This document shows positions 12,380-51,197 of a DNA stretch of 64,000 nt, piece after piece. Position numbers and translations under genes: made by a program. The DNA comes from Octopus vulgaris (Eukaryota), in NCBI GenBank assembly GCA_951406725.2, contig OX597818.1, positions 38,254,001 through 38,318,000 on the forward strand, given 5' to 3'. The stretch's first letter is position 1. The number at the start of each line of letters is the position of its first letter. A model generated the notes under the pieces. That model did not search any database. It saw only the letters and a list, made by a program, of their open reading frames with translations, and was not told where the DNA came from.

Positions 12380-12381
<2 letters not shown>

Positions 12382-12617
12382 AATTAGAGACAAAACCACT
12401 ATTATGCAAATCAAACAAAGAAAGACTTAAGCCAATACATAAAATATAAAATAATTTATATAAATTAAAATTTAACAAATGAATAACCACTACGATCGTA
12501 GTGATTTGCATAATAGTGGCTTTGTCTCTAATTTATTATAATATAATATTTTATTATAAAATTGGATTCAATCTTAAATCTGATTTTTCCTTGTAAATTT
12601 GGATTTATTCCCTAATA

Positions 12618-12621
<4 letters not shown>
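12380..12621. mobile_element. PLE 3'-end fold-back insertion in (TA)n (family of the 24318-25845 element)
   Basis: Minus arm 12380-12500 matches 25703-25840; plus arm carries tail ...tgatttttccttgtaaatttggatttattccctaatattt. Confidence 0.85.
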
Positions 12622-12660
<39 letters not shown>

Positions 12661-12786
12661 CGGGCAATTTAAGCTGGCCATGTGCATACGTGCATATATA
12701 TGTATATATGAGCGTTCGTATATGTAAGTATAACGTATGTTCTGTATATATATATATATATCTGTATTTATGTGCTTATCTGGTAT

Positions 12787-12845
12787 ATTCAACTGAAGAA
12801 GGCAAAGCTTCTCTGATGCAAAGTCAGAAATCCAGGATCTTGAAT
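12787..12845 (+). ncRNA. Type I hammerhead ribozyme motif at start of a pLTR-like repeat (to about 13150; homolog at 16920-17090 minus)
   Basis: Helix I auucaa/uugaau, CUGAAGA 12793-12799, GAAA 12827-12830, helix III AUCC-a-GGAU, AUC site. Confidence 0.75.
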
Positions 12846-13147
12846 TATCCAGAAAAATCTTTTGTATGTATATTGTTATAATTGTCCTTTTAGTAAATAA
12901 ATAAATTGACATAATATAATGTCTAAAAATTGATGAATACCACCTATTGGTCCCCTCCATTTTCTTATTGCTGTATAAATTAATGGTAAAATAACTCTTT
13001 ACCCTCACCCATTTATTACACTCGGTAATGTAATTGCCATGCAATAAAAAACACTTGTGTATTAATAATTGGGTATTCTACCAGCAGTATAGTGGATAGA
13101 TATTATCCCTTAGTTGGTTGGATTCACAACCTCTAACTGTCTTGGAA

Positions 13148-13191
<44 letters not shown>

Positions 13192-13231
13192 AAGAGAAAA
13201 AAAACCTTTGTTGCAGCGCACCTAATCAGTG

Positions 13232-13336
13232 TTCATCTAGCAACAGGACCTCCGTAATGCTATGATGGACCGTGAAGTCTGTCGTAGCATAGTAAATTCC
13301 ATTGTCTCGACCACGGTTGAACAATGATGATGATGA
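13232..13336 (+). mobile_element. 3' end of RTE-like LINE (same as 37093-37450)
   Basis: cagcaacaggacctccg..gaccacggttgaacaatgatgatg matches the reverse complement of 37095-37195. Confidence 0.75.
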
Positions 13337-13339
13337 GTG

Positions 13340-14815
13340 TTCAATATGAGCAAAATATAAAATCAAAGTGAATTACAAAATACATGAAAAAAAATTCATT
13401 GAGATGTTAAGTTTCAAGCGCTCCAATATTACAATCCAAAGAAACGCAGTATTACAAAACCTACGATCGTTTCGAAGAGTCGTTTGTATTGGGTGAGTTT
13501 TCAAACCGATACAAATAGTCACATTTCTCTCATCAGAGGTACAAATAAATCGATTAAAATAGTTTAAAAATTGAGAAAGCTTAAGATATCTCCTACTTAC
13601 AGAACTTAAAGTCATATGAAGTATATATATTTTTGGAATGTTATAGTATTTTTTTAAAAAGGATATAGAAAAGCTTTGTGAAGTGAAACATTTGTGCGAA
13701 TGAAAATGAAATTAAAAACATATGTAAAATAAAATAAAATAAAATGAGGACTCATCTTTCGGGTTAAGACAGTTGGTCTACTGATAGTTAAAGATAGTAT
13801 AAATGCAGAATGTTATTGAGAACGGTCTAAAAATTCACTGATATTTGTGATTTACAATTCACAAAGATCGTTAACTTGCAACTTATATACAGAAGGTTAA
13901 TAATAATAGGCTCGAATGCGACGCTAAGCTCATGAATTACTTAGATGCCAAAGTATAAAGAATTTTACGCTTAAACTTTAAGTTGATCAAATCTAACCAA
14001 AGTGGAGGAAATTATTATTTTATTAAGGTATTATTATGTTCATAAATCGGTTTCTATCCTTTCTACTTTAAAAAAAAATTAATTGTAGCTAAATATTTAT
14101 GCCTATATGCAATTATAATATCCAATATTTTTTTAATTAGAATTTTCTTCTCTGTGCGAAGTATACTAGCTGCTTCCTTCGTACATAACTTACCCCGTCC
14201 AGTATACGTTTTATAAGGGGTGGTTTCTGTTATGATCGACCAGTCTAATCTAAATTCGTTATCTCGCATTTTTAGTTTGTTAATATATGTAGCCAGCGTT
14301 GTTGCGTATTTTGTTCCTGGGTTCGAGAATGAGCTGATGTTTCCTCTATATCCTGTTTTGAAATCCGTGGTACTTCCTATATATACTGTCCTAGGTTGAT
14401 TAGAGGTTATGACCTCAGTCTTGTATACCACGTTTTTCCTTAGAGAGGAACCTCCAATGGACATGGATTGCAGTTTCGACAATTGCATGCTTTTTTTTTC
14501 TGTTGCTCACCCCTGTGTTTTCTTTATCTATGTTATTATTAATCCTACACGTATTGGGGGCTACCCATATTCCCGTTACTCCCAAGCTTGAATCTATCGT
14601 TCCCTGCGATTATCGATCCTAAATTAGGCGTAGTTGAGTATGAAAGTTTTAGACAGGATCTATTAAAGATAGAGCAGTATTTATGGCCCACAGGGAAATT
14701 CTTATCGACGATATTAAAAAATATCTTTGGGAGATTTTTAACCTGCAGAGAAAAGGGGGCGGTTAAACCATATAATTTCCTGTTTTCTCGCATTCCTACG
14801 GCCAGTTTGCCGCTG
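13340..14815 (-). mobile_element. 5'-truncated Penelope-like element (linker + GIY-YIG + HHR pLTR)
   Basis: APFS..V..IFFNIVDKNFP.GHKY..IFNR..LKLSYSTTPN; NVVYK..VYIGSTTDFK; LDWSI; YRHK. Confidence 0.9.
13459..13540 (-). ncRNA. Hammerhead ribozyme motif with extended helix II
   Basis: Minus: acc-u-CUGAUGA-GAG..uauuuguaucgg/ccaauacaaac..UUC-GAAA-CGAUCG-UA-ggu; ACGAUCGU palindromic helix III. Confidence 0.85.
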
Positions 14816-15089
14816 TTTGTTATTATTATTGTTGTTGTTGTTGTTGTTGTCATCATCATCATTATCATCATCATCAAGTTCTGATCTTTGTGTACCTTAA
14901 AATGTTTTTTGAGGCCTCCGTTAGATTTGCAGACCTTATAGCATACACGGCATTGTAAGGTATGCATAGATAAATAGGCAGAGTAGTTAGTGGAGTTTCG
15001 TTTTTCATGGATTCGCAAATGAGATATTAAACCCAGCGAAAGAAAGGCATAAATATTCATAGTGCCGCCACCCCTGACATGCCCTCACC

Positions 15090-15432
15090 TACTCAAGTAG
15101 ACATCCTTGCTAGCTATGCAGACGATACCAAAGTCTATCAGAGGATATAGGACGCTGGAGACGTCCTGTATCTTCAAGGTAAGTTGGACGCAATATACAG
15201 ATGGGCTGAAGAAAATAAAATGTAGTTTAATGCTGGAAAATTCCAAGCCCTGCGCTACCAACTCAGGAAGCTCAATGAAAACCAGAGAGGATACACTGGC
15301 GGGGTTTCAAATCCTGAACCAAAATCAGTGCGTGACCTGGGCATCGACATGAATAATGATGCATCTTTCCAGGTGCACATTACCAAGTTAGTAATAAAAT
15401 GCAGACGTTTGGCCGGATGGTTCCTTAAAAAT
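15090..15432 (+). mobile_element. CR1/L2-like RT fragment
   Basis: YADDTK, IYRWAEENKM.FN..K, RDLGIDM..SF..HI..C..LAGW. Confidence 0.75.
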
Positions 15433-15504
15433 TTCAAAACAACATATATATATATGTATATATATATGCGACGGGCTTCTTTCAGTTTCCGTCTACCAAA
15501 TCCA

Positions 15505-15539
<35 letters not shown>

Positions 15540-15540
<1 letters not shown>

Positions 15541-15848
15541 AAGAGCTGTTCTTCACTCCTGCTCCAGAGTGTCGGCTGCGGGGTCACTCCGAAAAGCTCT
15601 ATCTGCGACGATTTAATCTCAATCGAGGGAGAGGGGCTTTCTCCGTCCGGGTTGCGGATCCGTGGAATAAGCTGCCGGACGAGATAGTGAAGATACCGAC
15701 GACCGCTCGGTTCAAAGTCTCTCTTGACCAGAAATGGCGTGAACTCTTTGCATGAACACCCTCCCTCTACATAACTCCATGTCCCCCTACATGGCCTTGC
15801 TTTTTGCTTTTTGAGCCAAAAAATTAACTTAACTTATCTTGACTTAAC
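15540..15848 (+). mobile_element. CR1/L2-like LINE 3' end (family of 29277 and 38225)
   Basis: ELFF.PAPE.RLRGHSEKLY..; shared 3' UTR ccatgtccccctacatggccttgc. Confidence 0.85.
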
Positions 15849-15880
15849 ACACACACATACACATACATATATGTATAAAA

Positions 15881-16240
15881 GAATTACACCATGGAAGGTG
15901 TTTATAAGCCATTTAAAAAAACATACAAAAACTGTTAGATTCACTTCAACATTTAAATTTAATTTGTGTCAAGATATTTTCGTTGCTTTGAAACCGCGAC
16001 CTGTTCATTAACAAAATTTCGTTCTGCATCTCAGTTTTTGTCAGTGAACGAGTTGCGGTTTCAAAGCGACGAAAATATTTTGACACAAATTAAATTTCAA
16101 TGTTGAAGTGAATATAACGGTTTTTGTGTGGGGCGGGGGGGGTTAAATGGGTTATAAATACCTTCTGCGCTGCAATTGTTTTCTTTTTTCAGCACACGAT
16201 TTCAGATCAAGTCACTTGCTATGCAAGTACATCTCCTTAA
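15881..16240. mobile_element. Fold-back hairpin element with HHR-like cores and one-sided tail
   Basis: Arms 15881-16016 / 16036-16178; tail 16179-16240 (ttcagcacacga..ttgc). Confidence 0.8.
16036..16089 (+). ncRNA. Variant hammerhead motif with G3-C8 core (mirror copy 15963-16016 minus)
   Basis: Helix I ugUCA/UGAca, GUGAAC 16044-16049, helix II GUUGC/GCGAC, GAAA 16071-16074, AAUAUU palindromic helix III. Confidence 0.6.
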
Positions 16241-16256
16241 TATATAAATATATAGC

Positions 16257-16628
16257 ATGGTACTTTATCGGTTACAACGACGAGGGTTCCGGTTGATCCG
16301 ATCAACGGAACAGCCTGCTCGTGAAATTAATGTGCAAGTGGTTGAACACTCCACAGACACGTGTAGCCTTAACGTAGCTTTCGGGGAGATTCAGCGTGAC
16401 ACAGAGTGTGACAAGGCTGACCCTTTGAAATACAGGTACAACAGAAACGGGAAGAAAGAGTTGTGGTGAAAAAGAGTACAGTAGGGTTCACCACCACCCC
16501 TTGCCGGAGCCTCGAGGGAATTTAGGTGTTTTCGCTCTATAAACACTCACAACGCCCAGTCTACGAATCGAAACCGCGATCCTACGACCGCGAGTCCGCT
16601 ACCCCAACCACTGGGCCATTGCGCCTCC
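16257..16628 (-). mobile_element. tRNA-derived SINE (family C head, different tail)
   Basis: Reverse complement starts ggaggcgcaatggcccagtggttggggtagcggactcgc, as at 3736. Confidence 0.85.
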
Positions 16629-16699
16629 ACACACACACGTATGTGTGTGTGTATGTATGTATGTATGTATGTATGTATGTATGTATGTATGTATGTATG

Positions 16700-16730
<31 letters not shown>

Positions 16731-16883
16731 TGTTTTAGCTGCCAATTCTGTACAAGACATTGTAGATCTCTAGCTGGGCTAAAAAGTCACATTCGATCAC
16801 AGCACCAATAACAGTTAAGCTTCGTGCAATGGCCATATTCGATAACGAGGAGGCAGCCATCATGTAATGTATATGTGTGTGTA

Positions 16884-16915
<32 letters not shown>

Positions 16916-17087
16916 GGTTATAAAATGAGATAGGGGTTGAAAATTCAACCCACCATGGGATAATATATATCCAATATACTGCTAGATAGGTACCCAACAA
17001 AAATTAATACATAGATGTTAGAAATTGTCAAGCAATCAGTTCATCTATTGTATTAAATGGGTAAGGGTAATAATATTACCGTTTGTA

Positions 17088-17147
<60 letters not shown>

Positions 17148-17169
17148 GTGTGTGTAGAGAGAGAGAGAG

Positions 17170-17381
17170 GGGGGGGTAAAAAGTTTCTGGCTTTAAGGGT
17201 GTCGCGAAAGGCCAGGCTGGAGGCCCTAACTTCCGAGTTCTTTTACAGGGCTTAGAAAAACTGAAGGCCACTGCAATATGTGTGTGAATCTGAGGGGAGA
17301 ATATGTTGACTAAAATCATTATTAACTGATCCTCCTGTGTTTTTTTTTACCCAAAACTATGAACTTTTCAGCGCCCTTCGT
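17170..17381. mobile_element. Tc1/mariner-derived MITE (copies at 44175-44387 and 44660-45042)
   Basis: TIR-like gagggg..aaaagtt / aacttttcagc.ccctc-TA; shared internal gggcttagaaaaactgaagg. Confidence 0.65.
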
Positions 17382-17764
17382 ATATATTCACTCACGCAAA
17401 CACACATACGCACACAGACACACACACAAACTTCAAAAGTGTTTGTGTACATATATGTAATCACTACTTTTGTGCGTGCGTGTATGTATTTACACATACT
17501 GTATAATAGTTTAAATTATACATGTTATCGGCGGAGAGAAAGTAACCACATGACATTCTCATATACTCGTGACTATGCTAAGTGTCATAGAACAAACAAA
17601 CTAGATTTCTTTATCTTAAGGCTTATACTTAACTCTATTTTTGGCTTTATCAAGCCGTCTCTTGGTCATAAGTCTTTGTTAACTTGGATGGACGCATATT
17701 TTTGTCGCTGAATAGATATATAACATTTAAAAGAGATCTATGAGAAATTTGGTATAGATAAGAT

Positions 17765-17855
17765 CCGGGCTACATATATTTCATAGCGAGCGCAACCTCA
17801 GAGGTGGTAAATATCTAGGCGAGGTGTATATTGCAGGCTACTCTTCAGGCCAAGG
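17765..17855 (-). ncRNA. Hammerhead ribozyme motif in a fold-back pLTR-like repeat (about 17720-18110)
   Basis: Minus: GGC-CUGAAGA-GUAGC..GCUAU-GAAA-UAUAUG-UA-GCC; opposite arm starts at the ACAUAUGU palindrome (about 17865). Confidence 0.75.
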
Positions 17856-18160
17856 ATATTTAACACATATGTAGCCCGGACCTTATCAACTCCATTCTAT
17901 AACTCTTGTTTTCTTATTAATACACCCGGCAACCCAAGTCGCCGACCGTGAAATATAAAAAGAACTTTTTTTCAGTTTGTCCTACATCGATACGAAAATA
18001 ATACACTACATTCTGTCTCAATAAACTACTATTGTCCCCGAAAGTTGCTTTTTCTATATTAACTACGGATTGCTTGAAGCTAACTTTCTTCAACACCTCA
18101 ATCCCTGGATCTTACACACACATATATATGTATATATATATATGTGTGTGTGTGTGTATT

Positions 18161-18238
<78 letters not shown>

Positions 18239-18261
18239 GCGGAAGGCTGACTTATACGATT

Positions 18262-18398
18262 ACTTAGGTTTCCCGTCCGTAAAGGGGTCTGACGATACGC
18301 CATAAAGCTAAACCCCTTATGGACAGGGAACCTAAGGTGATCCCATAAACCGGCCTTCCCCCAGAGTGTGCTTCTCTGGATTTATGTTTTCTACAAAC

Positions 18399-18401
<3 letters not shown>
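18262..18401 (+). mobile_element. PLE pLTR fragment with degenerate HHR (family of 1772 and 4918), short inverted 5' piece
   Basis: CUGACGA..CCAUAAAG/CCUUAUGG..GGAA-CCUAAGG-UG; tail identical to 1772-1810 minus. Confidence 0.75.
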
Positions 18402-18472
<71 letters not shown>

Positions 18473-18527
18473 CACATACATACATACATACATATATTTA
18501 TACATACATACATATATATTCTTTCTT

Positions 18528-18697
18528 TTTTCCTTTACTCGTTTCAGTCATTTGACTGCGGCCATGCTGGAGCAAATCGACCCCAGAGCTTATTCTGTGT
18601 AAGCGGTCTATTTTGCCGAGCCGCTAAGTTACGGGAACGTAAACACACCAACAGCGGTTGTCAAGCGACGATGGGGGACAAACACAAACACACACGC
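18528..18697 (-). mobile_element. SINE family A, 3' half
   Basis: gtttcagtcatttgactgcggccatgctggagca... Confidence 0.8.
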
Positions 18698-19036
18698 AAG
18701 AAAAATTCAAATACATATATGAATTACATATTTGAATATTATTTGAATCTTTCTTGTTATATATCAAATTTAAACACAGGCATTTTTATTCTGATGTTTA
18801 ATTTTATTTCTCACATTCTGTATTTGACATATACTTGATTTTACATGAATGATATATATACTAATTCATATTTATAATGTATAATTTTAAAATTTTAATT
18901 CTTAATATTACAAAGTATAAGTTTTATTCTTAATTTTTATTCTTAATTTCTAATTCGTAATTTTTAATCTTTAATGCTTAATTATATTGCTTATTTTTAA
19001 AGGGATATAAAATTAGATATATATTATTTTGAAATA

Positions 19037-19170
19037 GAACCTGAAGATTATTTGGAATAATTGTAAATTTGACGATTGCAAATATGTATTTGTATATGTA
19101 TATATATATAGGTATACAGTTGTGTATATGTACATATATTGTAATCTTCCAATACTGAAACACGTAGTTC
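19037..19170 (+). ncRNA. Hammerhead motif with about 110-nt helix II insertion in AT-rich PLE-like 3' region (about 18700-19355)
   Basis: Helix I gaac/guuc, CUGAAGA 19041-19047, uauuuggaa/uuccaaua, GAAA 19157-19160, CACG, UA. Confidence 0.65.
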
Positions 19171-19908: not shown

Positions 19909-19915
<7 letters not shown>

Positions 19916-20510
19916 ATATTTCGGAATGGTCATTTTGCCAGTTTAGCCAATAAAAACACACGCACTATATATTTGGTGTTATTTTGCTTCAGTGTTATTT
20001 ATTTTTTACATTAATCTTAATCTTATTTCGGCCAGAGTTCTTTCGTCACACTCCTGTGACCGCATCAGTGGTCCTTTGTTTTCTTCTTTCTTATTTGTGT
20101 CTCTTCTTATTAACCGTCAGCCATTTAAGGGATAAGAATATCCGTTCTTACTACCGGTATCAATTACCTATGTTAACCCTGGGCATGGGTATGCAAGCAC
20201 ACTATGCTCATGGGGTACAGGTAATAACAAAATAAATGGCTGACGGTTAGTAAGGAGAGACACAAATAAGAAAGAAGAAAACAAAGGACCACTGATGCGG
20301 TCACAGGAGTGTGACGAAAGAACTCTGGCCGAAATAAGATTAAGATTAATGTAAAAAATAAATAACACTGAAGCAAAATAACACCAAATATATAGTGCGT
20401 GTGTTTTTATTGGCTAAACTGGCAAAATGACCATTCCGAAATATAACAATATCTGTTTCAACACACGACTTCACATAAAAAATATTGCACAACAAATATT
20501 TAAACGTACT
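19909..20510. mobile_element. Fold-back hairpin element (about 218-bp arms) with two HHR-like motifs and a tail, in (TA)n
   Basis: Arms 19909-20127 / 20233-20451 nearly identical; tail 20452-20510 (ttcaacacacga..ttgc). Confidence 0.9.
20286..20330 (+). ncRNA. Minimal hammerhead motif, CUGAUGC variant (mirror copy 20030-20074 minus)
   Basis: GGACCA-CUGAUGC-G-GUCACA-GGAG-UGUGAC-GAAA-GAAC-UC-UGGCC. Confidence 0.7.
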
Positions 20511-20529: not shown

Positions 20530-21088
20530 AGTAAATAGCGTTAGCGGTTGGAATAACCATTTAAGGGATAAGAATATCCGTTCTAACTACCGGTATCAAT
20601 TACCTATGTTAACCCTGGGCATGGGTATGCAAGCACACTATGCTCATAGGGTACAGGTAATAACAGAATAAAGAAGAGTTTATCAGGAAATAAATTTAAA
20701 ATAAGCAGAAAATGGAGAAAACTTTTAATCAACAAAGAAATTGACCACCATTGATTAATTATTTTTAAAACAAAACTTTAACATCGCTTACAGCCGTTTC
20801 AGCAACCGATGTCAGTCGTTGCCTCCAAAGAAAATTATGAGAATTATATTCGTCATCTTTATACTACATCTAATCTAGTACATGGAACTTTATCAGAGTG
20901 AATACAAATACATAAAATATAAGAAGATAGAAGAGGAAAGAAGAGGGCCTCATTTTTCTTTCGAGGCACTGACTGATATTGGTAGCTGAAACGGCTGTAA
21001 GCAATGTTAAAGTTTTGTATTAAAAAAATAATTAACCGATGGTGGTCAATTTGTTTATTCATCAAAAGTTTTCTCCATTTTCTGCTTA

Positions 21089-21091
<3 letters not shown>
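20530..21091. mobile_element. Fold-back pLTR-like element with degenerate HHR 3' halves
   Basis: Arms about 20698-20845 / 20948-21091, both with CUGAYA..GAAAC-GGCU-GUA; tail 20530-20697. Confidence 0.7.
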
Positions 21092-24317: not shown

Positions 24318-24320
<3 letters not shown>

Positions 24321-25839
24321 AAATATTAGGGAATAAATCCAAACTTACAGGGAAAAATCATGTCTGGAAATAAACATGCTCCTTATTACAATGAGGCCCT
24401 TAGAGAGGCAGGTTATAATAGTAATATTAAATTTTTTATTAAAAATAAAGATAAAGATATAACTAATAATATTAGAGATAAAAATATTAATAATAATTAT
24501 AATAATTTTGTTAGTAATAGTGGAAATAATATTAGAAATTATAAAAATAAAAATAATATAAATAAAAATAAGAATAAAAATAAAATTAATAACTTTAATA
24601 ATTCTTTAAATATTAATTATAAATATAAATCTGATAATAATAATATTAATATGATAAAGAAATATAATAATAACAATAATAATGACAGTTTTAATAATAA
24701 GAAGGAAAATAAGAATAAAATTTGGTTAATAGTTCCTTATGGTGCTCAAGTTAAAACGAACATTATTAAAGAGATTTTAGATATTATTGAACAATTTATT
24801 CAAGATAATCGTAAATATAAAAACATTTTCTGTAGTAATAATTTTGGAGTAGGTTATTCCACCACTAATAGTGTAGGTAACATTATTTCTTCTTTTAACA
24901 AATTTAAACTGAATAATTTTTATAAAAATAAATTATATAATAATACCAATAATAAAGACAAGACACTAATTAACTGTACATGTAGAGATAAAACTAAATG
25001 TAAATTAAATAATAAATGTGATATTAACGATGTAGTGTATAAATGTATAGTTACATTACATGATAAGAATAATAAGAATAATAATAACTCAAACGCGTTA
25101 TATATAGGGTCCACTTCCTCTAAAATAAAATTAAGAATCGCACATGTGAATTCATTTAAAAATAAAAACTTAATTAACTCCACTGGACTTAGCAAGTACA
25201 TTTAGAGACTTAAATCCCAAAATATTAATTATAATTTATCTTGGGAAATAGTAAGTAAAACTAAATCATATACTATAGGAGCGAATTTTTGTTATTTATG
25301 TTCTAATGAGTTTAAGGAAATTTTACTTTATAAGCATGATAATTTACTGAATACCTGTGATGAGCGCAAAATAAAATGCAGACACAAGTTACTTTACTTA
25401 TATAATAAATTTCTTGATAAATAATGATTATTTCTTAGCCTTAATTAGCTCCCTATTTGTTGTTTTATGTAATAGTATTATAAATATACCAGGTGATTTA
25501 TTATATTAGTTTATTTTAGTTATTTAGGTTCTGTTTTTAATTATAGTTAGATTATAGATGGTTGTTCATTTTATTACTAAATATTTTATTACTAAATATA
25601 TTTTTAATAAATATTTAATGGTTTATTGAATATAGAGTCTGATATGTAAACCACCTGAAGAATGACTGTAACTCGAAATTTTAAGAATTGAACTGCCATG
25701 AAACGATCGTAGTGTTATATTAATTATCTCTTTTAATAATTTTGATATATATTTAAATAATATAAATTAATTAATCTTATGTATTGGCTTAAGTTTTTCA
25801 TTGTATGATTTGCCTAATAGTGGTTTTATCTCTAATTTA

Positions 25840-25845
<6 letters not shown>
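24318..25845 (+). mobile_element. 5'-truncated Penelope-like element with inverted tail at its 5' junction
   Basis: APYYNEALREAGY, KIWL.VPY, CTCR..C.L...C, DVVYKC..LYIGST, LSKY, C.LC..E, CRHK; 24318-24360 is the reverse complement of the family tail; flanked by (TA)n. Confidence 0.92.
25649..25716 (+). ncRNA. Hammerhead ribozyme motif in PLE pLTR
   Basis: cac-CUGAAGA (25655-25661)-AUG..CAU-GAAA (25700-25703)-CGAUCG-UA-gug. Confidence 0.85.
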
Positions 25846-26471: not shown

Positions 26472-27600
26472 GCATATAAAAGAGAAAAATTATCCTGGTG
26501 GATAACATATGTAGGTCAGAGATATTTAAGCAGTCGAAAAGTTTTGGATGTCAATAAATTTTCACTCTCCTCTTTGTTATCAATGGTGTGTGTGTGTGTG
26601 TGTGTGTACATGTGTATGTGTGCACATGTGCATGTGTGTTTGTGTTTGTGTTTGTTCCCACCAAGCCACATGACAACCAATGTTGGTGTGTTTACGTCCC
26701 CTTAACTTAGAAGTTTGTCTGATCAGTAAGTATCCAGACTGTTGCCATAGTAATGAAGCTAAAGCATACAGGGTGAAGCTGTTTGGTACAGATTGACTTT
26801 GAACTCTGCTGTGCATGTACACTAAGTTTTAATGTTCTAGCTCACTTCCACTGTTTACAGCAGTGCTTGGAAGGAAGGTGTGTAGTGTGTGATCATTACA
26901 TTGACCATAACAGAGAAAGCCGAGCAGAGAATCTGCATCAAATTTTGCCAAAAGCTTGGCAATGCCTGCTCAGAGGCCTACACAAAGTTTTCAAAAAGTT
27001 TCCATCGTTCTTGACACAATCAAGGAAATCTTGTGCAACTGAAACCTGAGTGTCTTTTTGGTCAGCTGAAAGCAGTTTTGGCACAAACTTCTGAGACACA
27101 CGTCTCATACCCAAATCTTCTGTGATAATGGACTGAACGGACCTGTAACTAATCTGCACATCCTCTGATAACTCATGGATGGTGATTTGAAGATTTCTCC
27201 TCAAAGCTGCATGCACATCTGCAAAGCTTTTCTCAGTTCTGCTGGTTGCAAGTCTCTCAGAAGGTTAGTCATTTTCAACATTTTTTTGGTCATCTTGTAA
27301 ACATCTGGACCACTCATGCACTTGTGTGCAGCTCATACACTCCTCTCCATACACTTTCTGCAACTTTATGTAGGCCTCTGTGCAGGTATCACCATGACAA
27401 CTTCCTCTGTCTTGGTCAATGCGATGATCACACGCTACACACCTTCCCTCCAAGCACTGCTGTAAACATCAGAAGTGAGCTAGAACGTTAAAACTTAATG
27501 CACAAGCACATCATAGGTCAAACTCAACATTCAAGGTGGTGCCCCCAGTATTGCCACAGTTTTGGCCACAGCTCATGAGCTGAAACTAGATAAAATGGAA
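26255..27600 (+). mobile_element. SINE family A interrupted by an inverted mariner remnant
   Basis: Head 26255-26410, body 26600-26720, tail 27528-27600. Confidence 0.65.
26768..27525 (-). mobile_element. Mariner remnant with inverted duplication of its 5' region
   Basis: ITIHELSEDVQISY.SV.SII.EDLGMRRVS.KFVPKLL; 26768-26990 inverse to about 27360-27525. Confidence 0.8.
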
Positions 27601-28170: not shown

Positions 28171-28173
<3 letters not shown>

Positions 28174-28814
28174 GTAATTAGCGTTCAGCAAAGATTTGCT
28201 TTACCACATACCGAAGTTTAGAAATAGCTGCCAAAAAGCCTTAGCTATTTCTTCTACTTTAAAAAGGGACTCCCAGAAAAACCAAAATACTTGAAAACAA
28301 TCCACTCAGGCAGAGAGGAAAAGTAACAAAAATCAATCAATATCTGGTCACCCATGTACGTTTTCGGAATTAGATCGGTATAAAGAATATAGAATTATAC
28401 TTTACTAACCATTTTCTTCATCAGCATGGGACTCCAACAATATTAAATATTGAAATATTAAATTCGAAGGTACTGGAACAGTAAAGTATAATTCTATATT
28501 CTTTATACCGATCTAATTCCGAAACACAAGTACATGGGTGACCAGATATTGATTGATTTTTGTTACTTTTCCTCTCTGCCTGTGTGGATTGTTTTCAAGT
28601 ATTTTGGTTTTTCTGGGAGTCCCTTTTTAAAGTAGAAGAAATAGCTAAGGCTTTTTTTGGCTGCTATTTCTAAACTTCGGTATGTGGTAAAGCAAATCTT
28701 TGCTGAACTCTAATTATTAAGTATTACTTAAGTTTACCATGAAATGGTCCTTTTTCATGCCGAATTCTACTTGGTGAAATTATTGATTACTTCTTAATTA
28801 ATTTTACCCTTTGT

Positions 28815-28820
<6 letters not shown>
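28171..28820. mobile_element. Fold-back pLTR element with tail, in (TA)n
   Basis: Arms 28171-28406 / 28480-28720; tail 28721-28820. Confidence 0.88.
28347..28433 (-). ncRNA. Hammerhead ribozyme motif with long helix II
   Basis: Minus: CCCAUG-CUGAUGA-..uucc-GAAA-acg-UA-CAUGGG (6-bp helix I). Confidence 0.8.
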
Positions 28821-29976: not shown

Positions 29977-30077
29977 TTTCACATGGCATGAGTATCATTA
30001 ATGTAACTATGATAATTAGGATACCAGTATGAGTAATTACTATAATTATAATACAAATTATTCTCACTATTCTAATA

Positions 30078-30602
30078 ATGATGAACACTCATATTATTAA
30101 TCATAGGAATTACAATTGTACTAACTCTATTGATCTTAATACGGCTAATGCTGCACCACTCATAGCTCATGTTAAGACATGTAATTTCAGAGTGTCTATT
30201 AATTGCCCTTTGAAGGGCAATTTTTTATGTCATAATGTTATCTATAAATGTACTGTTACTACCACATGGACCCATTTCACTAAAATTTACATTAGTGCAG
30301 CTGTTAATTTTAAACTCCATTTTCTTGCACATCTAATCTCATTCTCAAATATTACAAGAAAATTATCTAGCTCCCTGACCACCCACATTTACCACCTCAA
30401 AGCCAACAGCATTCCCTATGACACTTTCAGGTCTGCAATTAATAATGGAATTCTATACACGGAAAGCCAACAACCATGTAACTTATGCTGTCATGATTCC
30501 CTCAGTATATTATGTGATAATGAGATCTTTCTCCTCAACTGCTTCTCTGACGTAATAACTTGTTGCCACAGACATTGCAAAACTTTTCTCTCAACACCAT
30601 AA
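30078..30602 (+). mobile_element. Degenerate Penelope-like GIY-YIG endonuclease fragment
   Basis: CNFR...CPLKG, NVIYKC..IYIS, CNLC, CCHRH. Confidence 0.82.
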
Positions 30603-33160: not shown

Positions 33161-33410
33161 CATCCTCACTGTTTGAGAGATATATTAGAAATGATCTCGT
33201 GTTAGATAGCAACCATCTTCGGCTATTTTGATCCTGTTGTGTCCATTGCTCTGATTGGTTGGCATTGGCGCAGTTTGTCTCTTGACTTATTTCGCGCCAG
33301 TGTGTAAGCCAACCAATCAGAGCAGTGGACACAACAGGCTCAAAATAGCCGAAGACGGTTGCTATCTAACACGAGATCATTTCTAATATATCTCTCAAAC
33401 AGTGAGGATA
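33161..33410. mobile_element. Palindromic MITE (about 100-bp arms)
   Basis: atcctcactgtttgagagatatattagaaatgatctcgtg.. / ..cacgagatcatttctaatatatctctcaaacagtgaggat. Confidence 0.85.
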
Positions 33411-36144: not shown

Positions 36145-36340
36145 CCACCACCACCACCACCACCACCACCACCACCACCACCACCACCACCACCACTACC
36201 ACCACCAAAGGTCTCAGTCACTTGTCATTGCCTCTGTAAGGCCCAATGTTCAAAGGATGCTTTTTACATTCCACCGGCAATTAGGAATTAAGTATTTTAA
36301 AATAAGGATACAGTGCTCAATAGCTCATTAGCCACAAGAG

Positions 36341-36390
<50 letters not shown>

Positions 36391-36393
<3 letters not shown>

Positions 36394-36560
36394 GGTCCCG
36401 GGTTGATTCGGGGTTAACCACAGTAAGTAAGGTACTCAATACATAGCAGAGTAAAATTAATTTATTATATAGAAGGAGTTTACAGGACTAGTACTGTTTC
36501 ATTCAAGAGAAATCTTCAGGAATGAAACAGTACTAGTCCTGTAGAAGCTCCTTCTATATA

Positions 36561-36566: not shown

Positions 36567-36596
<30 letters not shown>

Positions 36597-36743
36597 CTCT
36601 TGTGGCTAATGAGCTATTTTGACTCTTATTTCTAGCAATGCTGGTACCACTTTGTACCCTCTGTCACTTTAGTGATGTCTTTAAATTTGCCTTTAGGTAG
36701 TTAAATTGTTAACAAGCAACCCATATTATTTATATATATCTGT

Positions 36744-39901: not shown

Positions 39902-39960
<59 letters not shown>

Positions 39961-39965
39961 GTGTA

Positions 39966-40003
39966 TCTTTCTGTCGAAGAGTGTAGGCTCGAAACGTAAA
40001 AGA
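39966..40003 (+). ncRNA. Minimal hammerhead motif (A6 mutated) in a short pLTR-like repeat (to about 40097)
   Basis: ucuuu-CUGUCGA-A-GAG-uguagg-CUC-GAAA-CG-UA-aaaga; ACGU palindromic helix III. Confidence 0.65.
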
Positions 40004-40250
40004 CTTTTTCTATTCCTGAGCGCTATACTAATACATTTGTTTGCTTATTCTCCACCTGCCTTCGTCTTTTGTTTATTTTCATAAACTTTCCCTTTATATA
40101 TATATATACATATATATATATGTGTGTGTGTGTGTACATGTATATATAATAGAAATATGTTTAAAAAAGAAAATAGAAACTACACGTGGAAAAGGTTTGG
40201 GGAAAGTAAGAAGAAAAAACCGTGAAAAATGCACATTGGATTTCAAAAAA

Positions 40251-40495
40251 TGGCACTGTCATGCCTTTGGTTGTCAGAAGTGAAAGTAGTCAACTTCGTG
40301 TATTTCCGTCAGGTTTATACCTTCGTTAATTTACGCCGTTTATTTATGTACCACCACGCTGTTAGGTTTATAAAACAATTGAAGTTCAGTTTAAAGTTTA
40401 TAAATAAATACATTTCATGTGTAATGTATACACATGTGTATATATATATGTATACACATGTATATATACACATGTATATATATATATGTATACAC

Positions 40496-40582
<87 letters not shown>

Positions 40583-40908
40583 GTATAGACACATCTTTAA
40601 TTAAACTATTGACCGCCTTAAAGCGTATTTCAACAGAAAAATATTACTATAATGGATAATATAAGCATATAACTACTTATACACACATAAAAACAATAAT
40701 GAATAATGCAAGAATATATTTATTTATAAACAGAACATGGAATGAAATGTATTTATTTATAAACTTTAAACTGAACTTCAATTGTTTTATAAACCTAACA
40801 GCGTGGTGGTACGTAAATAAACGGCGTAAATTAACGAAGGTATAAACCTGATGGAAATATACGAAGTTGACTACTTTCACTTCTGACAACCAAAGGCATG
40901 ACAGTGCC
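40251..40908. repeat. About 170-bp inverted repeat pair around (TA)n
   Basis: 40251-40417 inverse to 40742-40908. Confidence 0.85.
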
Positions 40909-45500: not shown

Positions 45501-45937
45501 AAAGAAAAAAATAATAAACTTGAGGTCAAAGACTTACACAAACCTTGAATGTAATGAGGATATTGCTATCATAGGAATTAGCTATTTGTTGATAAAAAGA
45601 AAAAAAACATTAACAAGCTTTTTGCTCAAACACTTCTGCTTAATTTAATCTTCACCACAAAGTCTTATAGAATACTTTTGCGAAAAATAAAAAAAAAAAA
45701 CTGTTACTTTCAATATTTGAAATGTTTGTTTCATTTACACATGGAATCCTTTTTAGCATAAAAAAAGCACAACTTCCTTATTAATTCAATGATTTAATTA
45801 GTTGCAGACAGAAATGTTTGAATATTTTATTACAATTTACCATTGAACTTAAGACTAACATTTTGTAAGAGAAGGGGACACTAAAATGAATTGATACTAT
45901 TATATTACTGATATTTTAGATTACTGGTTTTGTGGGA

Positions 45938-46351
45938 CGGCGGCGAGCTGCCAGAAACGTTAGCACGCCGGGCGAAATGCTTAGCGGTATTTCGTCTGTC
46001 TTTATGTTGTGAGTTCAAATTCCGCCGAGGTCGACTTTGCCTTTCATCCTTTTGGGGTCGATTAAATAAGTACCAGTTACTGGGGTCGATATAATCAACT
46101 TAATCTGTTTGTCTGTCCTTGTTTGCCCCCTCTGTGTTTAGCCCCTTGTGGGTAATAAAGAAATAGGTATTTCGTCTGCCGTTACGTTCTGAGTTCAAAT
46201 TCCACCCAGGTCGACTTTGCCTTTCATCCTTTTGGGGGTCGATAAATTAAGTACCAGTTACGCACTGGGGTCGATATAATCAACTTAATCCGTTTGTCTG
46301 TCCTTGTTTGTCCCCTCTATGTTTAGCCCCTTGTGGGCAATAAAGAAATAA
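45938..46351 (+). mobile_element. SINE family B tandem dimer
   Basis: Full head plus a second unit joined at aaagaaata|ggtatttcgtctgcc; agattactggttttgtg duplicated on both flanks. Confidence 0.9.
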
Positions 46352-47144
46352 GATTACTGGTTTTGTGTAATGATGAGCATAGTTGATTCCAACAGACCTT
46401 CAGCTCAGAATAATAACAACATATTATATTACTTATAATTCTTCAAATCAAATATAACCACTATTTTACTATTTTTTAATAATATCACTGACTAATTATG
46501 ACACCACTGCTTGTTCTGGCACTGCTATTCTATATATCACTGACCAGGGATGAATTGCTGTTATCTCTAGTGGTCAAGCATTGATAAGACTAAAGAAGGT
46601 CAGAGGTCAAGGAGATTTATTTCCTCATTTGCAATATAGACAAGAGTGTATTTTGCACCAAAAACCAATATGGGAGTTTCTCTCATGCTAACCACCATAG
46701 TATAGTTTGTTCTAACAGATCAACCACATTTAAGTGGGGATAAATATTACCTCTCACTATTTCAACTATTTCTACTTGCTTTTAATTATTCACTTTAATT
46801 CCGCTAATTCTGAAGGAGTATAATCCAGATGTTAATAATAATAATGAAATTATTAGGTATAGTGCTCAGGGGCACTACAACTCATCAAAAGTGCATGTAC
46901 AGTACATAGAATTATGTACAAAAGTCAGGAAAGTGAACAGTGTATGAGTCATGATATACATGTGTGCATGTGTATGGAGTAGAGGATATCAAGTGTAGTG
47001 TTGGTGAATTTCAGGAAGCATGGAGGTTTTAAAGGAAGCACTGTTTTGGAAACTAACAACTGATGCGGCCTGGTGCAGCCATCTGGTTCTCCAGTCCTCA
47101 GTCAAATTGTCCAACCCATGCTAGCATGGAAACGATGATGATGA

Positions 47145-47188
<44 letters not shown>

Positions 47189-47486
47189 CTTTACTATCCA
47201 CAAGGGGCTAAACGTAGAGGGGACAAAAAGGACAGGCAAAGGGATTAAGTCGATTACATCGACCCCAGTGTGAAACTGGTACTTTATTTATCGACCCCAA
47301 AAGGATGAAAGGCAAAGTCGACCTCGGCGGAATTTGAACTCAGAACGTAACAACAGACGAAATACCACTAAGCATTTCACCCAGCGCACTAACGTTTCTG
47401 CCAGCTCGCCGCCTTAATGAAAAGACAGACGAAATGCCGATAAGCATTTCGCCCAGCATGTCTGCCAACTCGCCACGTTAGAACAT

Positions 47487-47521
<35 letters not shown>

Positions 47522-47574
47522 CTAGCCCATGCTAGCATGGAAAACAGATATTAAATGATATGTAGTCAGTGCAG

Positions 47575-47937
47575 TAGTAAAGAATCATATTTTATCACAA
47601 AATATAAACCCCTTTTGAATGCATCCACCACAAATGACACTATTACAAGGGCCTTAGAATAATACCCATGCAAATATTAAAACCAATATATTCAGAATAG
47701 CCACTACCCATGAATTTATTCAGAACAATTTCAATCACTACTATTACAACCACAAGGAGTCACTTTTAGGTCACTTGATCATTTAAGAGGATTCCACCAA
47801 CATCCTTTCATTTAATTTTTCCACAATTTAATTGTTTTTCATGCTTTACTCTAAGTTGAAAAAAGTTGCAAAGGCTGAAACCGGTACTAAAACATTCTTC
47901 ATGATAAAATTATTTTAGCATTTTCTACCTTGTCCTA
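47575..47937 (+). mobile_element. 3' end of a second PLE type (endonuclease C-terminus + HHR)
   Basis: KESYFITKYKPLLN (E..hI....P.LN GIY-YIG C-terminal motif); 3' end attattttagcattttctaccttg also at 29015-29042 minus. Confidence 0.6.
47852..47890 (+). ncRNA. Minimal hammerhead motif, U3-A8 variant
   Basis: ag-UUGAAAA-a-AGUU-gcaa-AGGCU-GAAA-CCGG-UA-cu; ACCGGU palindromic helix III. Confidence 0.6.
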
Positions 47938-47948
47938 TATATATATAC

Positions 47949-47992
<44 letters not shown>

Positions 47993-48093
47993 TTAATCCA
48001 AACATGAAAACACAAAGAGAAAACACAACAATGTGAGGATGTGGAACAAGTATAGTATTATTGGACGCTCAGGAAAGGAAAGAAAGAAGGAGG

Positions 48094-48128
48094 ATTTAAT
48101 GTTTCGAGCGGAGCTCTTCGTCAGAAAC
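48094..48128 (-). ncRNA. Minimal hammerhead motif in a short repeat (47990-48147)
   Basis: Minus: guuu-CUGACGA-A-GAGC-ucc-GCUC-GAAA-cau-UA-aauc. Confidence 0.75.
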
Positions 48129-50439
48129 ATAGAAAAAGGAAAGATCCTATACACACACACACACACACATATCTATGAATGTGTGTGTGTGTGTATGGAT
48201 GCATGGAGTTTATATTGCTGGATCTTTCTCCTATACTCCAGCCTATTAGTTTGGGGTCAAAAAAGTCAGGGGTTTTTTCTAGTATCCATGATTAAACTAA
48301 CTGTTGCTATTCTCACCCATTAAATTTTGATAATAATGCCCCATTGCTTTCTTCTGTCATGTTCCACATAGAGGTTACATTTTACACACCACCACAATAC
48401 CTCCTACTAAGGAATCAATGAGCAAGCTACTGCATGGCTGCTCAGTCTGCCTAAAACAGCAGCTAAATTTTACTCAAATCTCATCCCACCAACCTAGAAT
48501 AAAACACATACATTGGGTAATGTGTCCTGATTGTTCAATAATTGAGAAAAAGACTGGAAGGTTATGTTTGGAATGACTTTGACAATATATCCCCTTGATC
48601 AAAGTTGGCCACTAAACAATAACAACAACAAACCTCTGCTATATTTATACATCTTCTTTGAATAGGACCGATTTTTCTCAGTGTAGGATCTTTTGTAATA
48701 ATTTGTTTTCATAGCAATATATTTTAAAAGATGATAATTCAGCTTAACATAATTTTATATTAAACAGCAAAAAAAAAAAAAAATAAATAATAAATGCTAT
48801 CAAAATATTTCTTTGTTCTTGCTTGCCTTCTGACAATGTGGCAAATAAAATCAGGTGACAAAATAATTGTTTTTATATCATATCCACATGCCCCCATTTT
48901 CTGTTTCCATTTTTATTTTTGTGTACTATTTGTACAGGATGGGTGTGAGACAAGTTATTTTCTTTTTCAGAATCAAACACAATTAACCACTTGAAATACA
49001 GTATATTCTAAATGTTCAGCTGACTGACTATAAAGGAACTATTTATAGGATTAAAAGTATTACCAAGGTTGCCATTATAATAAACTGATGTGTCACAGAG
49101 TAATAGGTGCATTGCTAAAGGCCTGAGTTTCTGACATGATTTCAATTCCTGCAGAAACATTTTTAAATAACTTGCACAAATATTGTTTTTATGAGATTCA
49201 TTAATTTCTGACTTCACTTAGGAGTGGTAGTGCACACATGGAAAGCAGGGCCATATTATGAGTGCTTCAAGTTCCCAGCATTGCAGTGAGCTAAACTCAA
49301 TGCTGTGACTCAGTAAAACATTTTCTAGCTTTGTAATTCTGCTATGGCTTAAAGCAGGAAACATTTTATTATGTGGTATTTACTAACAGCTGTTTGAAAC
49401 TGATTCAACTGCCCATAGCTAACTGTATGGTTCACTGACTTCAATAACAGGATATAAAGTGGCAAACCTACAGCTTTTTGTCAAATATCCTATCAAATCA
49501 GCCATCTGCAGCTGTTACACTTGATAAAAGCATGAATCTAAAAATTTCTCATCCGCTTCCCCTGAAGATATATGGCTTCTATGCATTGTTACAGGTTAAA
49601 AGAAACCTATGTATTTTATTGTGTCATCATCATCGTTTAGCGTCCGCTTTCCATGCTGGCATGGGTTGGACGGTTCAACTGGGGTCTGGGAAGCCAGAAG
49701 GCTGCACCAGGCCCAGTCTGATCTGGCAATGTTTCTACGGCTGGATGCCCTTCCCTAACGCCAACCACTCCATGAGTGTAGTGGGTGCTTTTTACGTGCC
49801 AGGCAAGGCTGGCAATGGCCACGATCGGATGGTGCTTTTTACGTGCCACCGGCACGGAGGCCAGGCGAGGCTGGCAACAGCCACGTTCAGATGGTTCTCT
49901 TATGTGCCACTGGCACTGGTCATATACAAAAAAAATGGTTGGGTTACTCCAACACCATAAGATATGTGTGATGTCCCTAACTGGACTGAATCAGCCTGGC
50001 AGAATCTGGGCAGAAATGTTAGCACGCCGGGCGAAATGCTTAGCGGTATTTCGTCTGCCACTAAATTCTGAGTTCAAATTCCGTTGAGGTCAACTTTGCC
50101 TTTCATCCTTTCGGGGTCGATTAAATAAGTACCAGTTATGCACTGGGGTCGATATAATCGACTTAATACCTATGTCTGTCCCTGTTTGTCCTCTCTGTGT
50201 GTAGCCCCTTATGGGCAGTAAAGAAATATGAATCTGATGCATGGCTTGTGTAGTTAACTATCAGGTTAAGTAAAAAGTAAGCAAAGTTTTGAACCATGAA
50301 GAATTTGTACTGGATTTTTGCAGAGCTTTGAAATTTTTTAAAACATTTTTTTTACAATTGTCTGATAATACAGACACAGACTTGCCCAAATGCATCAATA
50401 AATTAACATTGATATTTTTTCCACCATTGTTACAATCAT

Positions 50440-50684
50440 CTGAAACGGAACTGTCAAAGCACAATATTCAAACAATTTTGCAATTCAGCTTCAAAAAAAA
50501 AAAAGGATGTAAAGCAGCTGAAACTACTTCTGATATCAAGGAAACGTTTGGTGAGGAAATGACCAGTGAGTGGTCAGCTTGAAAATGGTTAAAACAATTT
50601 CACAGTGGAGACCTGAACCTTGAAGATCGTGAGCGTAATGGATGTCCATCTGTCATTGATGACAGTCAATTAAACACCATCATT
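50440..50684 (+). mobile_element. Mariner transposase N-terminal remnant
   Basis: F..G.KAAET..DI..TFGE....W...F.SGD.NLED; appears to resume after the SINE near 51397. Confidence 0.7.
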
Positions 50685-51197
50685 ACTCTTTTACTTTTTT
50701 ACTTGTTTCAATCATATGACTGTGGCCATGCTGGAGCACTGCTTTTAGTTGAGCAAATCGACCCCAGGACTTATTCTTTGTAAGCCTAGTACTTATTCTA
50801 TCGGTCTCTTTTGCCGAACCGCTAAGTTACAGGGATGTAAACACACCAGCATCGGTTGTCAAGCGATGTTGGGATAACAAACACAGACACACAAACATAT
50901 ATATATATATATATATTAATTAGAGACAAAACCACTATTATGCAAATCAAACAAAGAAAGACTTAATCCAATACATAAAAAATTTTATATAAATTAAATA
51001 TAATTAAGATTAATTAATCTTAATTATATTTAATTCATATAAATTTTTTTATGTATTGGATTAAGTCTTTCTTTGTTTGATTTGCATAATAGTGGTTTTG
51101 TCTCTAATTAATATTATATTATATTTTACTATAAAATTGGATTCAATCATAAATCTGATTTTTCCCTGTAAATTTGGATTTATTCCCTAATATTTAT

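Follow-up and report, generated by a model that had tools for sequence, protein, structure and literature searches.

Several PLEs (Penelope/Poseidon, Neptune, Nematis and Naiad) carry an inverted, 5'-truncated copy in head-to-head arrangement, with palindromes at the junction, and a tail that is often present at one end only and overlaps the ORF start; their target-site duplications (TSDs) are variable (PMC8557442, PMC3846280). All these features are also found among the insertions described here. In the rotifer element Pen2a, the pLTR comprises 12 codons, or 22 with the tail (PMC8557442, PMC3846280). How PLEs make tandem and inverted pLTRs has been named as an open question (PMC8557442, PMC2377424).

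The anole Poseidon element PAc, studied in vitro, uses two fixed start sites that bound the tail and lie internal to the RNA, inside the ORF start. Its target is AT-rich, both strands are cleaved and extended, target and RNA share no homology, and hammerhead cleavage is not used, all of which resembles what we describe below (PMC11167929). The strands did not differ in start site and the two-ended product was not reconstituted, whereas every two-ended insertion found here is mixed; strict asymmetry is not predicted by the in vitro result alone (PMC11167929). In Schistosoma, minimal hammerhead pairs lying 100-700 bp apart on opposite strands, with a U3-A8 core as seen here, have been attributed to truncated PLEs; the accessible text of that report gives no end mapping, tail asymmetry or mechanism, and does not mention the G3-C8 and A9C cores that occur here (PMC4209133).

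Asymmetric insertions in the window

We have analysed a window of Octopus vulgaris DNA (the whole 64-kb stretch), in which an unbiased inverted-repeat census returned 21 clusters. Eleven were asymmetric hairpins and two were symmetric and MITE-like (33162 and 40252), the rest being one SINE pair, one mariner TIR pair, one simple repeat and five opposite-strand pairs of dispersed repeats. Twelve insertions (A, B, C, 1772, 18238, 15881, 19909, 56140, 20530, 28171, 36391 and 57591; Table 1) point the element end outward on both sides, and in 12 of 12 a short end on one side is combined with a tail on the other. They occupy 5.5 kb (8.6%) of the window, and RT/EN sequence is recognisable in only one of them. 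The first-pass annotation had reported this asymmetry for copies A, B and C and for eight further sites in other families. All eight were found to be asymmetric hairpins, but 15881, 19909 and 56140 are mutually related and thus not all sites are independent; 18238, of the same family as 1772, was absent from that list. At least two insertions, 2743-5017 and 39959-40098, have no inverted arm.

Table 1. Positions of the insertions and of their annotated parts within the window
Feature	Position	Strand	Description
Family 2 hairpin 1772	1773..2063		56-nt tail left; hammerhead in both arms
Family 2 coding copy	2743..5017	+	RT 2743-3513, EN 4268-4732, pLTR hammerhead 4934, short end
Copy A, family ABC (Hydra-clade PLE, by sequence)	12380..12621		sits in (TA)n
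Group 3 hairpin 15881	15877..16244		62-nt tail encoding part of ORF start
Family 2 hairpin 18238	18238..18399		40-nt tail right (27-nt internal deletion)
Group 3 hairpin 19909	19909..20509		arms 99% identical; 57-nt tail
Hairpin 20530	20530..21091		169-nt extension; only 3' half of hammerhead recognisable
Copy B left arm	24321..24360	-	distal 40 nt of tail only
Copy B ORF, 5'-truncated	24361..25430	+	HMM of PLE homologues, E 4.7e-39
Copy B 3' pLTR with hammerhead motif	25431..25845	+	core 25655, 12/200 shuffles; stops at short end
Hairpin 28171	28171..28815		canonical hammerhead left arm, core 28424, 2/200 shuffles; 95-nt extension to (TA)n
Hairpin 36391	36391..36560		left arm starts exactly at hammerhead core 36519 (by eye); 69-nt extension
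Copy C hairpin	50916..51197		arms 96% identical, 84-nt tail
Group 3 hairpin 56140	56140..56466		55-nt tail; 12-bp target-site duplication
Hairpin 57591	57592..57948		decayed hammerhead core, 33/200 shuffles (weak); 83-nt extension to (TA)n

The extension could be recognised as element sequence in 8 of the 12 insertions by homology to the tail of another one (A, B, C; 1772, 18238; 15881, 19909, 56140), with 0/1000 shuffles for the tested pairs, B being left out. Those of 20530, 28171, 36391 and 57591, each present as one copy, had no significant partner among 55 tail pairs (the likeness of 1772 and 57591, at 17/1000 shuffles, is not significant over these pairs), and every one of the four stops at a (TA)n run. 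Tails range from 55 to 95 nt, compared with 30-40 bp in the published PLE descriptions cited above, the exceptions being 18238 (40 nt, deletion) and 20530 (169 nt, unverified), the least certain member of the set. Folding gave no structure common to the tails, only that of 1772 reaching a z of -2.1, and a clear ORF start is absent from the ABC, 36391 and 57591 tails.

Flanking (TA)n is not universal, with none at 15881 and 56140 and one at 57591; as background, 2.6% of window positions lie within 12 nt of a (TA)6+ run. At the four short ends outside (TA)n, target and template share 0-1 nt, which matches non-homologous initiation. No two insertions in the window share an inner junction, and the end positions are conserved across diverged families. 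The proposal that the outer ends fall at two fixed positions while the inner junctions vary is supported by the data within the window.

Families, hammerhead motifs and class assignment

Copies A, B (24318-25845 as a whole) and C represent a single family. As had been proposed, all three sit in (TA)n, their six ends lying 0-5 nt from a (TA)6+ run, and in each one side stops at ...ctctaatt (A left, B right, C left) and the other at ...ccctaatatt (A right, B left, C right). The left, short arm of A reaches inward to the hammerhead stem-III palindrome at ~12490-12505, and its right arm consists of only ~34 nt plus an 85-nt tail. Copy C is centred on a natural TTAA palindrome near 51014 and inserted into the internal (TA)n of a SINE. 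The junctions of A and C differ, each has private changes in both arms, and ABC arms cluster by locus. No fold-back exists at copy B, whose left arm, 39/40 identical to the C tail, abuts ORF sequence directly and has nothing in common with the right arm. Since the arms do not overlap, neither could be a copy of the other. The earlier description of the same end pointing outward on both sides, with a tail of about 70-85 nt, thus applies to A and C (85 and 84 nt) but not to the left arm of B, which holds only the distal 40 nt.

The B ORF contains, in this order, the RT-thumb end, an Asn-rich insert, a CxCX5C linker and a GIY-YIG endonuclease, with one in-frame stop near 25203. It was placed by an HMM built from 25 of 26 PLE homologue proteins (a fused Octopus gene model was left out), which aligns over positions 448-700 and joins the C-terminal GIY-YIG endonuclease to the PLE RT (thumb end); the RT core is missing because B is 5'-truncated. 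A homologue search with the B endonuclease region gave no match, and Pfam returned no RT or GIY-YIG match for seven ORFs, B included. Published marks of the Hydra clade are a C-terminal GIY-YIG, the CxCX5C linker, CxxC and CxH around E/N in place of CCHH, RWK and DKT in the N-terminal RT, a length below 3 kb, (TA)n insertion and a canonical hammerhead (PMC8557442). The full set of CxCX5C, CxxC and CxH around E and N is present in B and the linker in family 2; homologues of the family 2 RT carry RWK and DKT, both coding copies here being 5'-truncated, and both families insert into (TA)n. On these sequence features, ABC and family 2 are linked to putative Hydra-clade coding sequence. They share clade features with Hydra-1_Obim of Octopus bimaculoides, which is annotated as 'no pLTR' and has a different hammerhead (PMC8557442); ABC and family 2 are distinct families. 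By eye only, RT 2743-3513 is very like the Hydra-1_Obim RT, and the family 2 tail end resembles the 5' end of the Hydra-1_Obim consensus, upstream of its ATG.

In family 2, the coding copy is 5'-truncated and its left end has no inverted arm. The two arms of 1772 are different haplotypes: the last 13 nt of the short arm show 0/13 differences to the separate coding copy at 4934 and 5/13 to the partner arm. Among the four arms of 1772 and 18238, three informative sites pair tail arms against short arms and one pairs by locus. The junctions of the two hairpins differ, that of 18238 lying at a 4-nt microhomology.

Group 3 tails read as roughly codons 9-27 of an ORF whose ATG lies inside the arm, which places the tail end within the coding transcript, close to its 5' end. 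Both 19909 and 56140 have the short end at nt 26 and the tail end at nt 81-83 after the ATG, and their tails are ~77% identical. The third-position excess in group 3 is weak, mismatches by codon position being 8, 6 and 13. A search with the peptide gave six matches; two were long repetitive proteins and were dropped, and the other four are short external proteins that align to the same part of it, three having a Met at the same place. No full-length group 3 protein was found and the link to an RT/EN ORF is limited to the ORF-start peptide, whose motifs are absent from the Naiad/Chlamys/Hydra supplement. The 19909 loop (20121-20236) duplicates the flank at 20557-20672 (113/116 identical), with microhomologies of 7 nt and of 4-5 nt. 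Hairpin 56140 sits inside a repeat, and the paralogue of this repeat at 55262-55460 has the site empty.

Six of the 12 insertions carry an outward hammerhead motif at no more than 12/200 shuffles, using a descriptor relaxed after the strict version had matched 19909 only. The ABC motif lies on the sense strand of the pLTR, stem I being completed by the copy A arm. Group 3 members have a minimal fold (0, 0 and 6 of 200 shuffles) with non-canonical, hammerhead-like cores (G3-C8 in 15881, U3-A8 in 56140). An Rfam scan of the window showed no hammerhead among the matches listed (150 of 230), with chance miRNA-type matches only. The inner ends lie 0-60 nt 5' of the core in all eight non-ABC hairpins in which a core can be recognised (core-to-end distances, 59-253 nt); A and C depart from this pattern. 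Hammerhead self-cleavage is excluded as the cause of the inner ends, since arms that reach the motif always extend 5' of the cleavage site.

Altogether, the coding sequence in B, the RT/EN beside family 2, the hammerhead motifs and the inverted 5'-truncated ABC copy with its one-sided tail, as in EN+ PLEs, make the suggested PLE origin of the insertions almost certain. Non-LTR retrozymes, which are head-to-tail tandem monomers with canonical hammerheads (PMC7229834), were rejected, given that the copies lie head-to-head and that the window yielded no tandem array. Target-site duplications are limited to the 12 bp of 56140 and a TA-like 6-mer at 15881; none was found at 1772 and 57591, and they are unreadable in (TA)n.

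Priming of both target ends and its alternatives

We consider it probable, as the first-pass annotation had proposed, that both target ends are primed, the hairpins being two independently primed PLE cDNAs from both sides of a double-strand cut. As shown in vitro for the anole PLE, a GIY-YIG endonuclease would cut both strands of AT-rich or (TA)n DNA, and each target 3'-OH would prime RT at a short or a tail site of the RNA, 55-95 nt apart; the ends are fixed, and the anole work suggests that they are initiation sites. The short site would be used on one side and the tail site on the other, in line with the pattern in 12/12. The tail site lies 3' of the upstream pLTR, within the ORF start or the 5' UTR (seen in group 3, and by eye in family 2), and is thus not the RNA 3' end. 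Priming of one end at the RNA 3' end is contradicted by the group 3 codons and by the internal anole start sites. A cDNA begun near the 5' pLTR would copy 60-270 nt to the RNA 5' end or to a stall upstream of the hammerhead, and one begun in the 3' pLTR could extend into the ORF, as in B. Because same-sense cDNAs cannot anneal along their length, host end-joining would link their 3' ends via short palindromes, microhomology or templated filler, features that are present at the junctions. The product would be a hairpin of head-to-head arms with a tail on one side, which is the inverted-pLTR-plus-tail layout in its minimal form. In L1 twin priming, the second target strand likewise primes a second cDNA and the inverted segment is joined by microhomology; one primer starts at the poly(A) end, the other by base-pairing at a variable internal site, and the segments do not overlap. 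Here, in contrast, both sites are fixed, pairing is unneeded and the arms overlap into a palindrome.

Two cDNAs are supported by the non-overlapping arms of B, the two haplotypes of 1772, the templated flank filler of 19909, and the TSD and empty site of 56140. The same-position inner ends and 0-4 nt loops of 1772, A, C and 56140 fit equally well a snap-back, in which a cDNA begun at the tail site folds back and is copied, after which the endonuclease cuts or stops it at the short site. These loops are centred on natural palindromes, from which self-priming has been read (PMC3846280); the inner end is often common to both arms, the 19909 filler is explicable in cis, and EN-mediated resolution of the tail has been proposed in the literature. 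Furthermore, the haplotype signal is confined to one family, includes several CpG-type sites and could be mimicked by gene conversion. The clustering of ABC arms by locus and the insertions without an inverted arm likewise speak against two cDNAs. However, snap-back would need a 1.5-kb palindrome at B that later lost nearly one whole arm, and it conflicts with the different haplotypes of the 1772 arms and with the mapping of both ends to RT start sites in vitro (PMC11167929); we regard it as unlikely. A unit formed once, transcribed and moved by PLE proteins and later subject to central deletions would explain why the tail arms of 1772 and 18238 are nearer each other (6/74 differences) than their partners (11/74 and 11/47), and a single central deletion would derive 18238 from a 1772-like unit. 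Such a history is improbable in view of the differing junctions and private changes of A and C and of the lack of any junction common to two insertions in the window; moreover, the 1772 short arm matches the coding copy, so its origin would still need two templates.

The insertions are short and non-coding with long inverted repeats, like DNA-transposon MITEs with terminal inverted repeats. This origin is very improbable and largely refuted: the ends are asymmetric in 12/12, junctions differ within A/B/C and between 1772 and 18238, TSDs have no fixed length, and hammerhead motifs and the RT/EN link are present, whereas the MITE-like 33162 and 40252 are symmetric and lack an outward hammerhead, 40252 having an 8-bp TSD. 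The earlier view that the hairpins look like MITEs without being so is therefore sustained. Assembly or read fold-back artefacts come to mind with sites in (TA)n and one suspect low-complexity block in the window (52970-54762), but are scarcely credible: the two arms of a hairpin carry private substitutions and differ by 1-24%, the flanks do not mirror each other, and a TSD and paralogous empty sites exist.

The hairpins had also been called abortive, a general label that we find doubtful. The position of the inner ends, immediately 5' of the hammerhead, is suggestive of run-off at the RNA 5' end and not of abortion; it is also as expected from a fixed stall. It is conceivable, and we hold it tentatively, that the hairpins are complete, normal products: an RNP dimer would always use one short and one tail site, one per strand, run-off cDNA would build the pLTRs and the inverted 5' copy, and a full insertion would arise if the short-site cDNA began in the 3' pLTR instead. 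This may be argued from the asymmetry in 12/12, the inner ends in 8/8 and the D. virilis start site, which is separated from hammerhead helix I, downstream of it, by 46 nt plus a 75-nt intron. If true, it would supply the missing mechanism of pLTR formation.

Novelty and significance

The bulk of the first-pass inference is already in print, namely the inverted pLTR with a one-sided tail (PMC8557442, PMC3846280) and the two initiation sites with extension of both target strands (PMC11167929). What is new here is the short-plus-tail combination in 12/12, the conservation of end positions across diverged families, the two-haplotype hairpin and, in 8/8, inner ends that lie 0-60 nt upstream of the hammerhead. 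In our search, neither coding-free PLE hairpins of strict asymmetry nor twin priming of PLEs was the subject of any paper, which is weak evidence given that subscription papers and older Penelope reviews fell mostly outside it; the accessible text of the O. vulgaris repeat annotation (PMC13282606) does not discuss hairpin structures.

Annotation pipelines may classify these hairpins as MITEs, and an outward hammerhead with a one-sided tail would be a simple discriminator. The layout itself is known; being so numerous and so small, the copies are well suited as a natural test of how PLEs insert. If the density in this window is even roughly typical, the genome would hold minimal reaction products in very large numbers, and their outer ends, inner ends and arm haplotypes could be used to test twin priming against snap-back without new biochemistry.

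Asymmetric ends of the insertions and their PLE origin

The three insertions of family ABC, a Hydra-clade Penelope-like element (PLE), lie in (TA)n and stop at ...ctctaatt on one side (short end) and at ...ccctaatatt on the other (tail end), with a one-sided tail of 84–85 nt. The first-pass annotation had described this asymmetry correctly and put the tail at about 70–85 nt, but its fold-back applies to A and C and not to B. A, whose right arm measures only ~34 nt, has at its centre the 8-bp palindrome that forms hammerhead stem III. C folds into a 96% perfect hairpin about a central TTAA, and B has no hairpin, 40 nt of distal tail being fused to 1.5 kb comprising ORF and pLTR. The inner junctions, which that annotation had named as the test against MITEs, all differ among the three.

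We have then taken a census of inverted repeats in the window (35.5% GC, with abundant microsatellites, SINEs and LINE fragments). Among the 21 clusters, 11 were asymmetric hairpins and two were symmetric and MITE-like; neither of these two carried an outward hammerhead above chance with a shuffle-tested descriptor. The asymmetry was recovered at all eight additional sites of the first-pass annotation, and 18238 was a twelfth insertion. The tail was confirmed by homology in eight of the twelve and is single-copy in the remaining four. With independent end choice, one end of each kind would have a probability of 0.004 for 8/8 insertions and 0.0002 for 12/12, presupposing that symmetric PLE hairpins are detectable, which the census makes likely. 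Arm divergence of 1–24% and flanks that are not mirrored argue against an artefact. Insertion 56140 is flanked by a 12-bp TSD, and its empty site is present in a paralogous copy; C occupies a SINE microsatellite that is unbroken in other SINE copies.

Features in the window (positions are window positions)
Feature	Position	Strand	Remarks
Insertion A	12380-12621
Insertion B	24318-25845
Insertion C	50916-51197
RT/EN coding copy	2743-5017
Decayed PLE coding fragment	13455-14790	-	hammerhead with long stem II at 13536
Decayed PLE coding fragment	30066-30590	+
Single-arm pLTR fragment	39959-40098		minimal hammerhead (core 39971); a (TA)n run on either side
Related hammerhead-like motifs, group 3	16008/16044, 20068/20292, 56268/56281
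Symmetric MITE-like hairpin	33162-33409		without TSD
Symmetric MITE-like hairpin	40252-40908		8-bp TSD; GG-starting ends, which we take to be Merlin-like
Terminal inverted repeats	26793-27527		around a transposase remnant, presumably mariner-like
Perfect inverted repeat, 25 bp	36319-36343 / 36594-36618		encloses the (TA)n of hairpin 36391
Inverted SINE halves	51949-52332		94.6% identical; flank (TA)n-(TCA)n-14 nt-(TGA)n-(TA)n; may be an inverted duplication or a very small insertion with two ends
(AT)n block, ~1.8 kb	52970-54762		includes T229 and A66; possible assembly artefact

The insertions are real and correctly attributed to PLEs. The B ORF matched an HMM built from PLE proteins (E 4.7e-39) and has the CxCX5C linker and endonuclease motifs diagnostic of the Hydra clade, which PMC8557442 records in Octopus and as targeting (TA)n. 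The RT/EN copy shares its pLTR with the family 2 hairpins 1772 and 18238, and the best named homologue of a window RT is an Octopus bimaculoides protein (60% identical), which makes an octopus host probable. At 24430-24720 the B ORF has ~90 in-frame codons rich in Asn/Lys, resembling the N-rich inserts of rotifer Penelope elements.

A strict hammerhead descriptor matched 19909 only and was relaxed. Outward motifs were then obtained at ≤12/200 shuffles in 1772, B, 15881, 19909, 28171 and 56140; 18238 and 57591 gave weak matches, and for A, C, 20530 and 36391 the outcome was negative or spurious, the last having a core at its junction recognised by eye. Among the related hairpins 19909, 56140 and 15881 (group 3), core positions 3/8 differ (C-G, U-A, G-C), with further changes in 19909 (A9C) and 56140 (G12A), and these motifs are possibly non-cleaving folds retained for protein binding.

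Source of the tail

A conserved peptide opens at an ATG within the arm of 19909 and 56140. Counted from this ATG, nt 26 marks the short end of both hairpins and nt 81–83 the tail end; 15881 has the same peptide, frameshifted. Four short external proteins match this stretch and are unrelated beyond it, as expected of tail-truncated copies. The codon signal is modest, and a search for a full-length group 3 protein found none. By eye, the family 2 tail end resembles Hydra-1_Obim sequence lying just before the ORF, upstream of its ATG. Together, the ORF-start peptide and this likeness indicate that the tail is the sequence following the upstream pLTR. Hence the tail end is internal, and priming at the RNA 3' end, as first proposed, does not hold. 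An internal end agrees with rotifer Pen2a and with the anole PLE, for which PMC11167929 places both start sites internally, bounding the tail.

Number of cDNAs and position of the inner ends

Each insertion probably derives from two independently primed cDNAs, one per target end. The two arms of B do not overlap, which counts for two cDNAs; the terminal bases of the 1772 short arm are identical to the separate coding copy at 13/13 positions vs 8/13 to its own partner arm, and family 2 tail arms cluster with each other across loci. Extension of both target strands in vitro is described for the anole PLE (PMC11167929). Target and template have 0–1 nt in common at four short ends that lie clear of (TA)n. 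A single cDNA folding back on itself, a self-priming interpretation already present in PMC3846280, would be compatible with tiny loops sitting on natural palindromes, inner ends common to both arms and the clustering of ABC arms by locus, and we consider it unlikely. In 19909 the loop matches, at 113/116 positions, flanking DNA that starts ~45 nt past the insertion, and the loop has microhomologies at its borders; this points to host end-joining, compatible with one cDNA or two alike. Movement of the hairpins as whole units seems improbable. At least two PLE insertions have no inverted arm, among them the single-arm fragment, which starts 12 nt upstream of its core.

Outside ABC, eight of the hairpins considered have a recognisable core, and in all eight the longer arm stops 0–60 nt 5' of the hammerhead, the core lying 59–253 nt from the short end; A and C depart from this pattern. 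If truncation were memoryless and arms had the mean length observed, such clustering would have a probability of ~2e-4; this is a crude null, using hand-set positions and visible-core hairpins only, with 20530 left out. In D. virilis, 46 nt and a 75-nt intron separate the transcription start from hammerhead helix I, which lies downstream. Together these make cDNA run-off at the RNA 5' end plausible; alternatively, the inner ends could reflect stalling where a protein occupies the motif, or long palindromes having been lost. Run-off combined with paired use of the short and tail sites is, as a joint reading, somewhat doubtful.

Relation to described PLE structures

Strict one-of-each asymmetry, arms of two haplotypes and run-off near the hammerhead were not found in the accessible literature. 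Earlier reports already contain inverted pLTRs with a one-sided tail of 30–40 bp (PMC8557442, PMC3846280), shorter than the tails here, hammerhead pairs on opposite strands 100–700 bp apart (PMC4209133), and a pair of internal start sites together with extension of both strands (PMC11167929). The insertions are a known kind of PLE structure with longer tails, and the mechanism first proposed is right in part and mostly foreshadowed in the literature.
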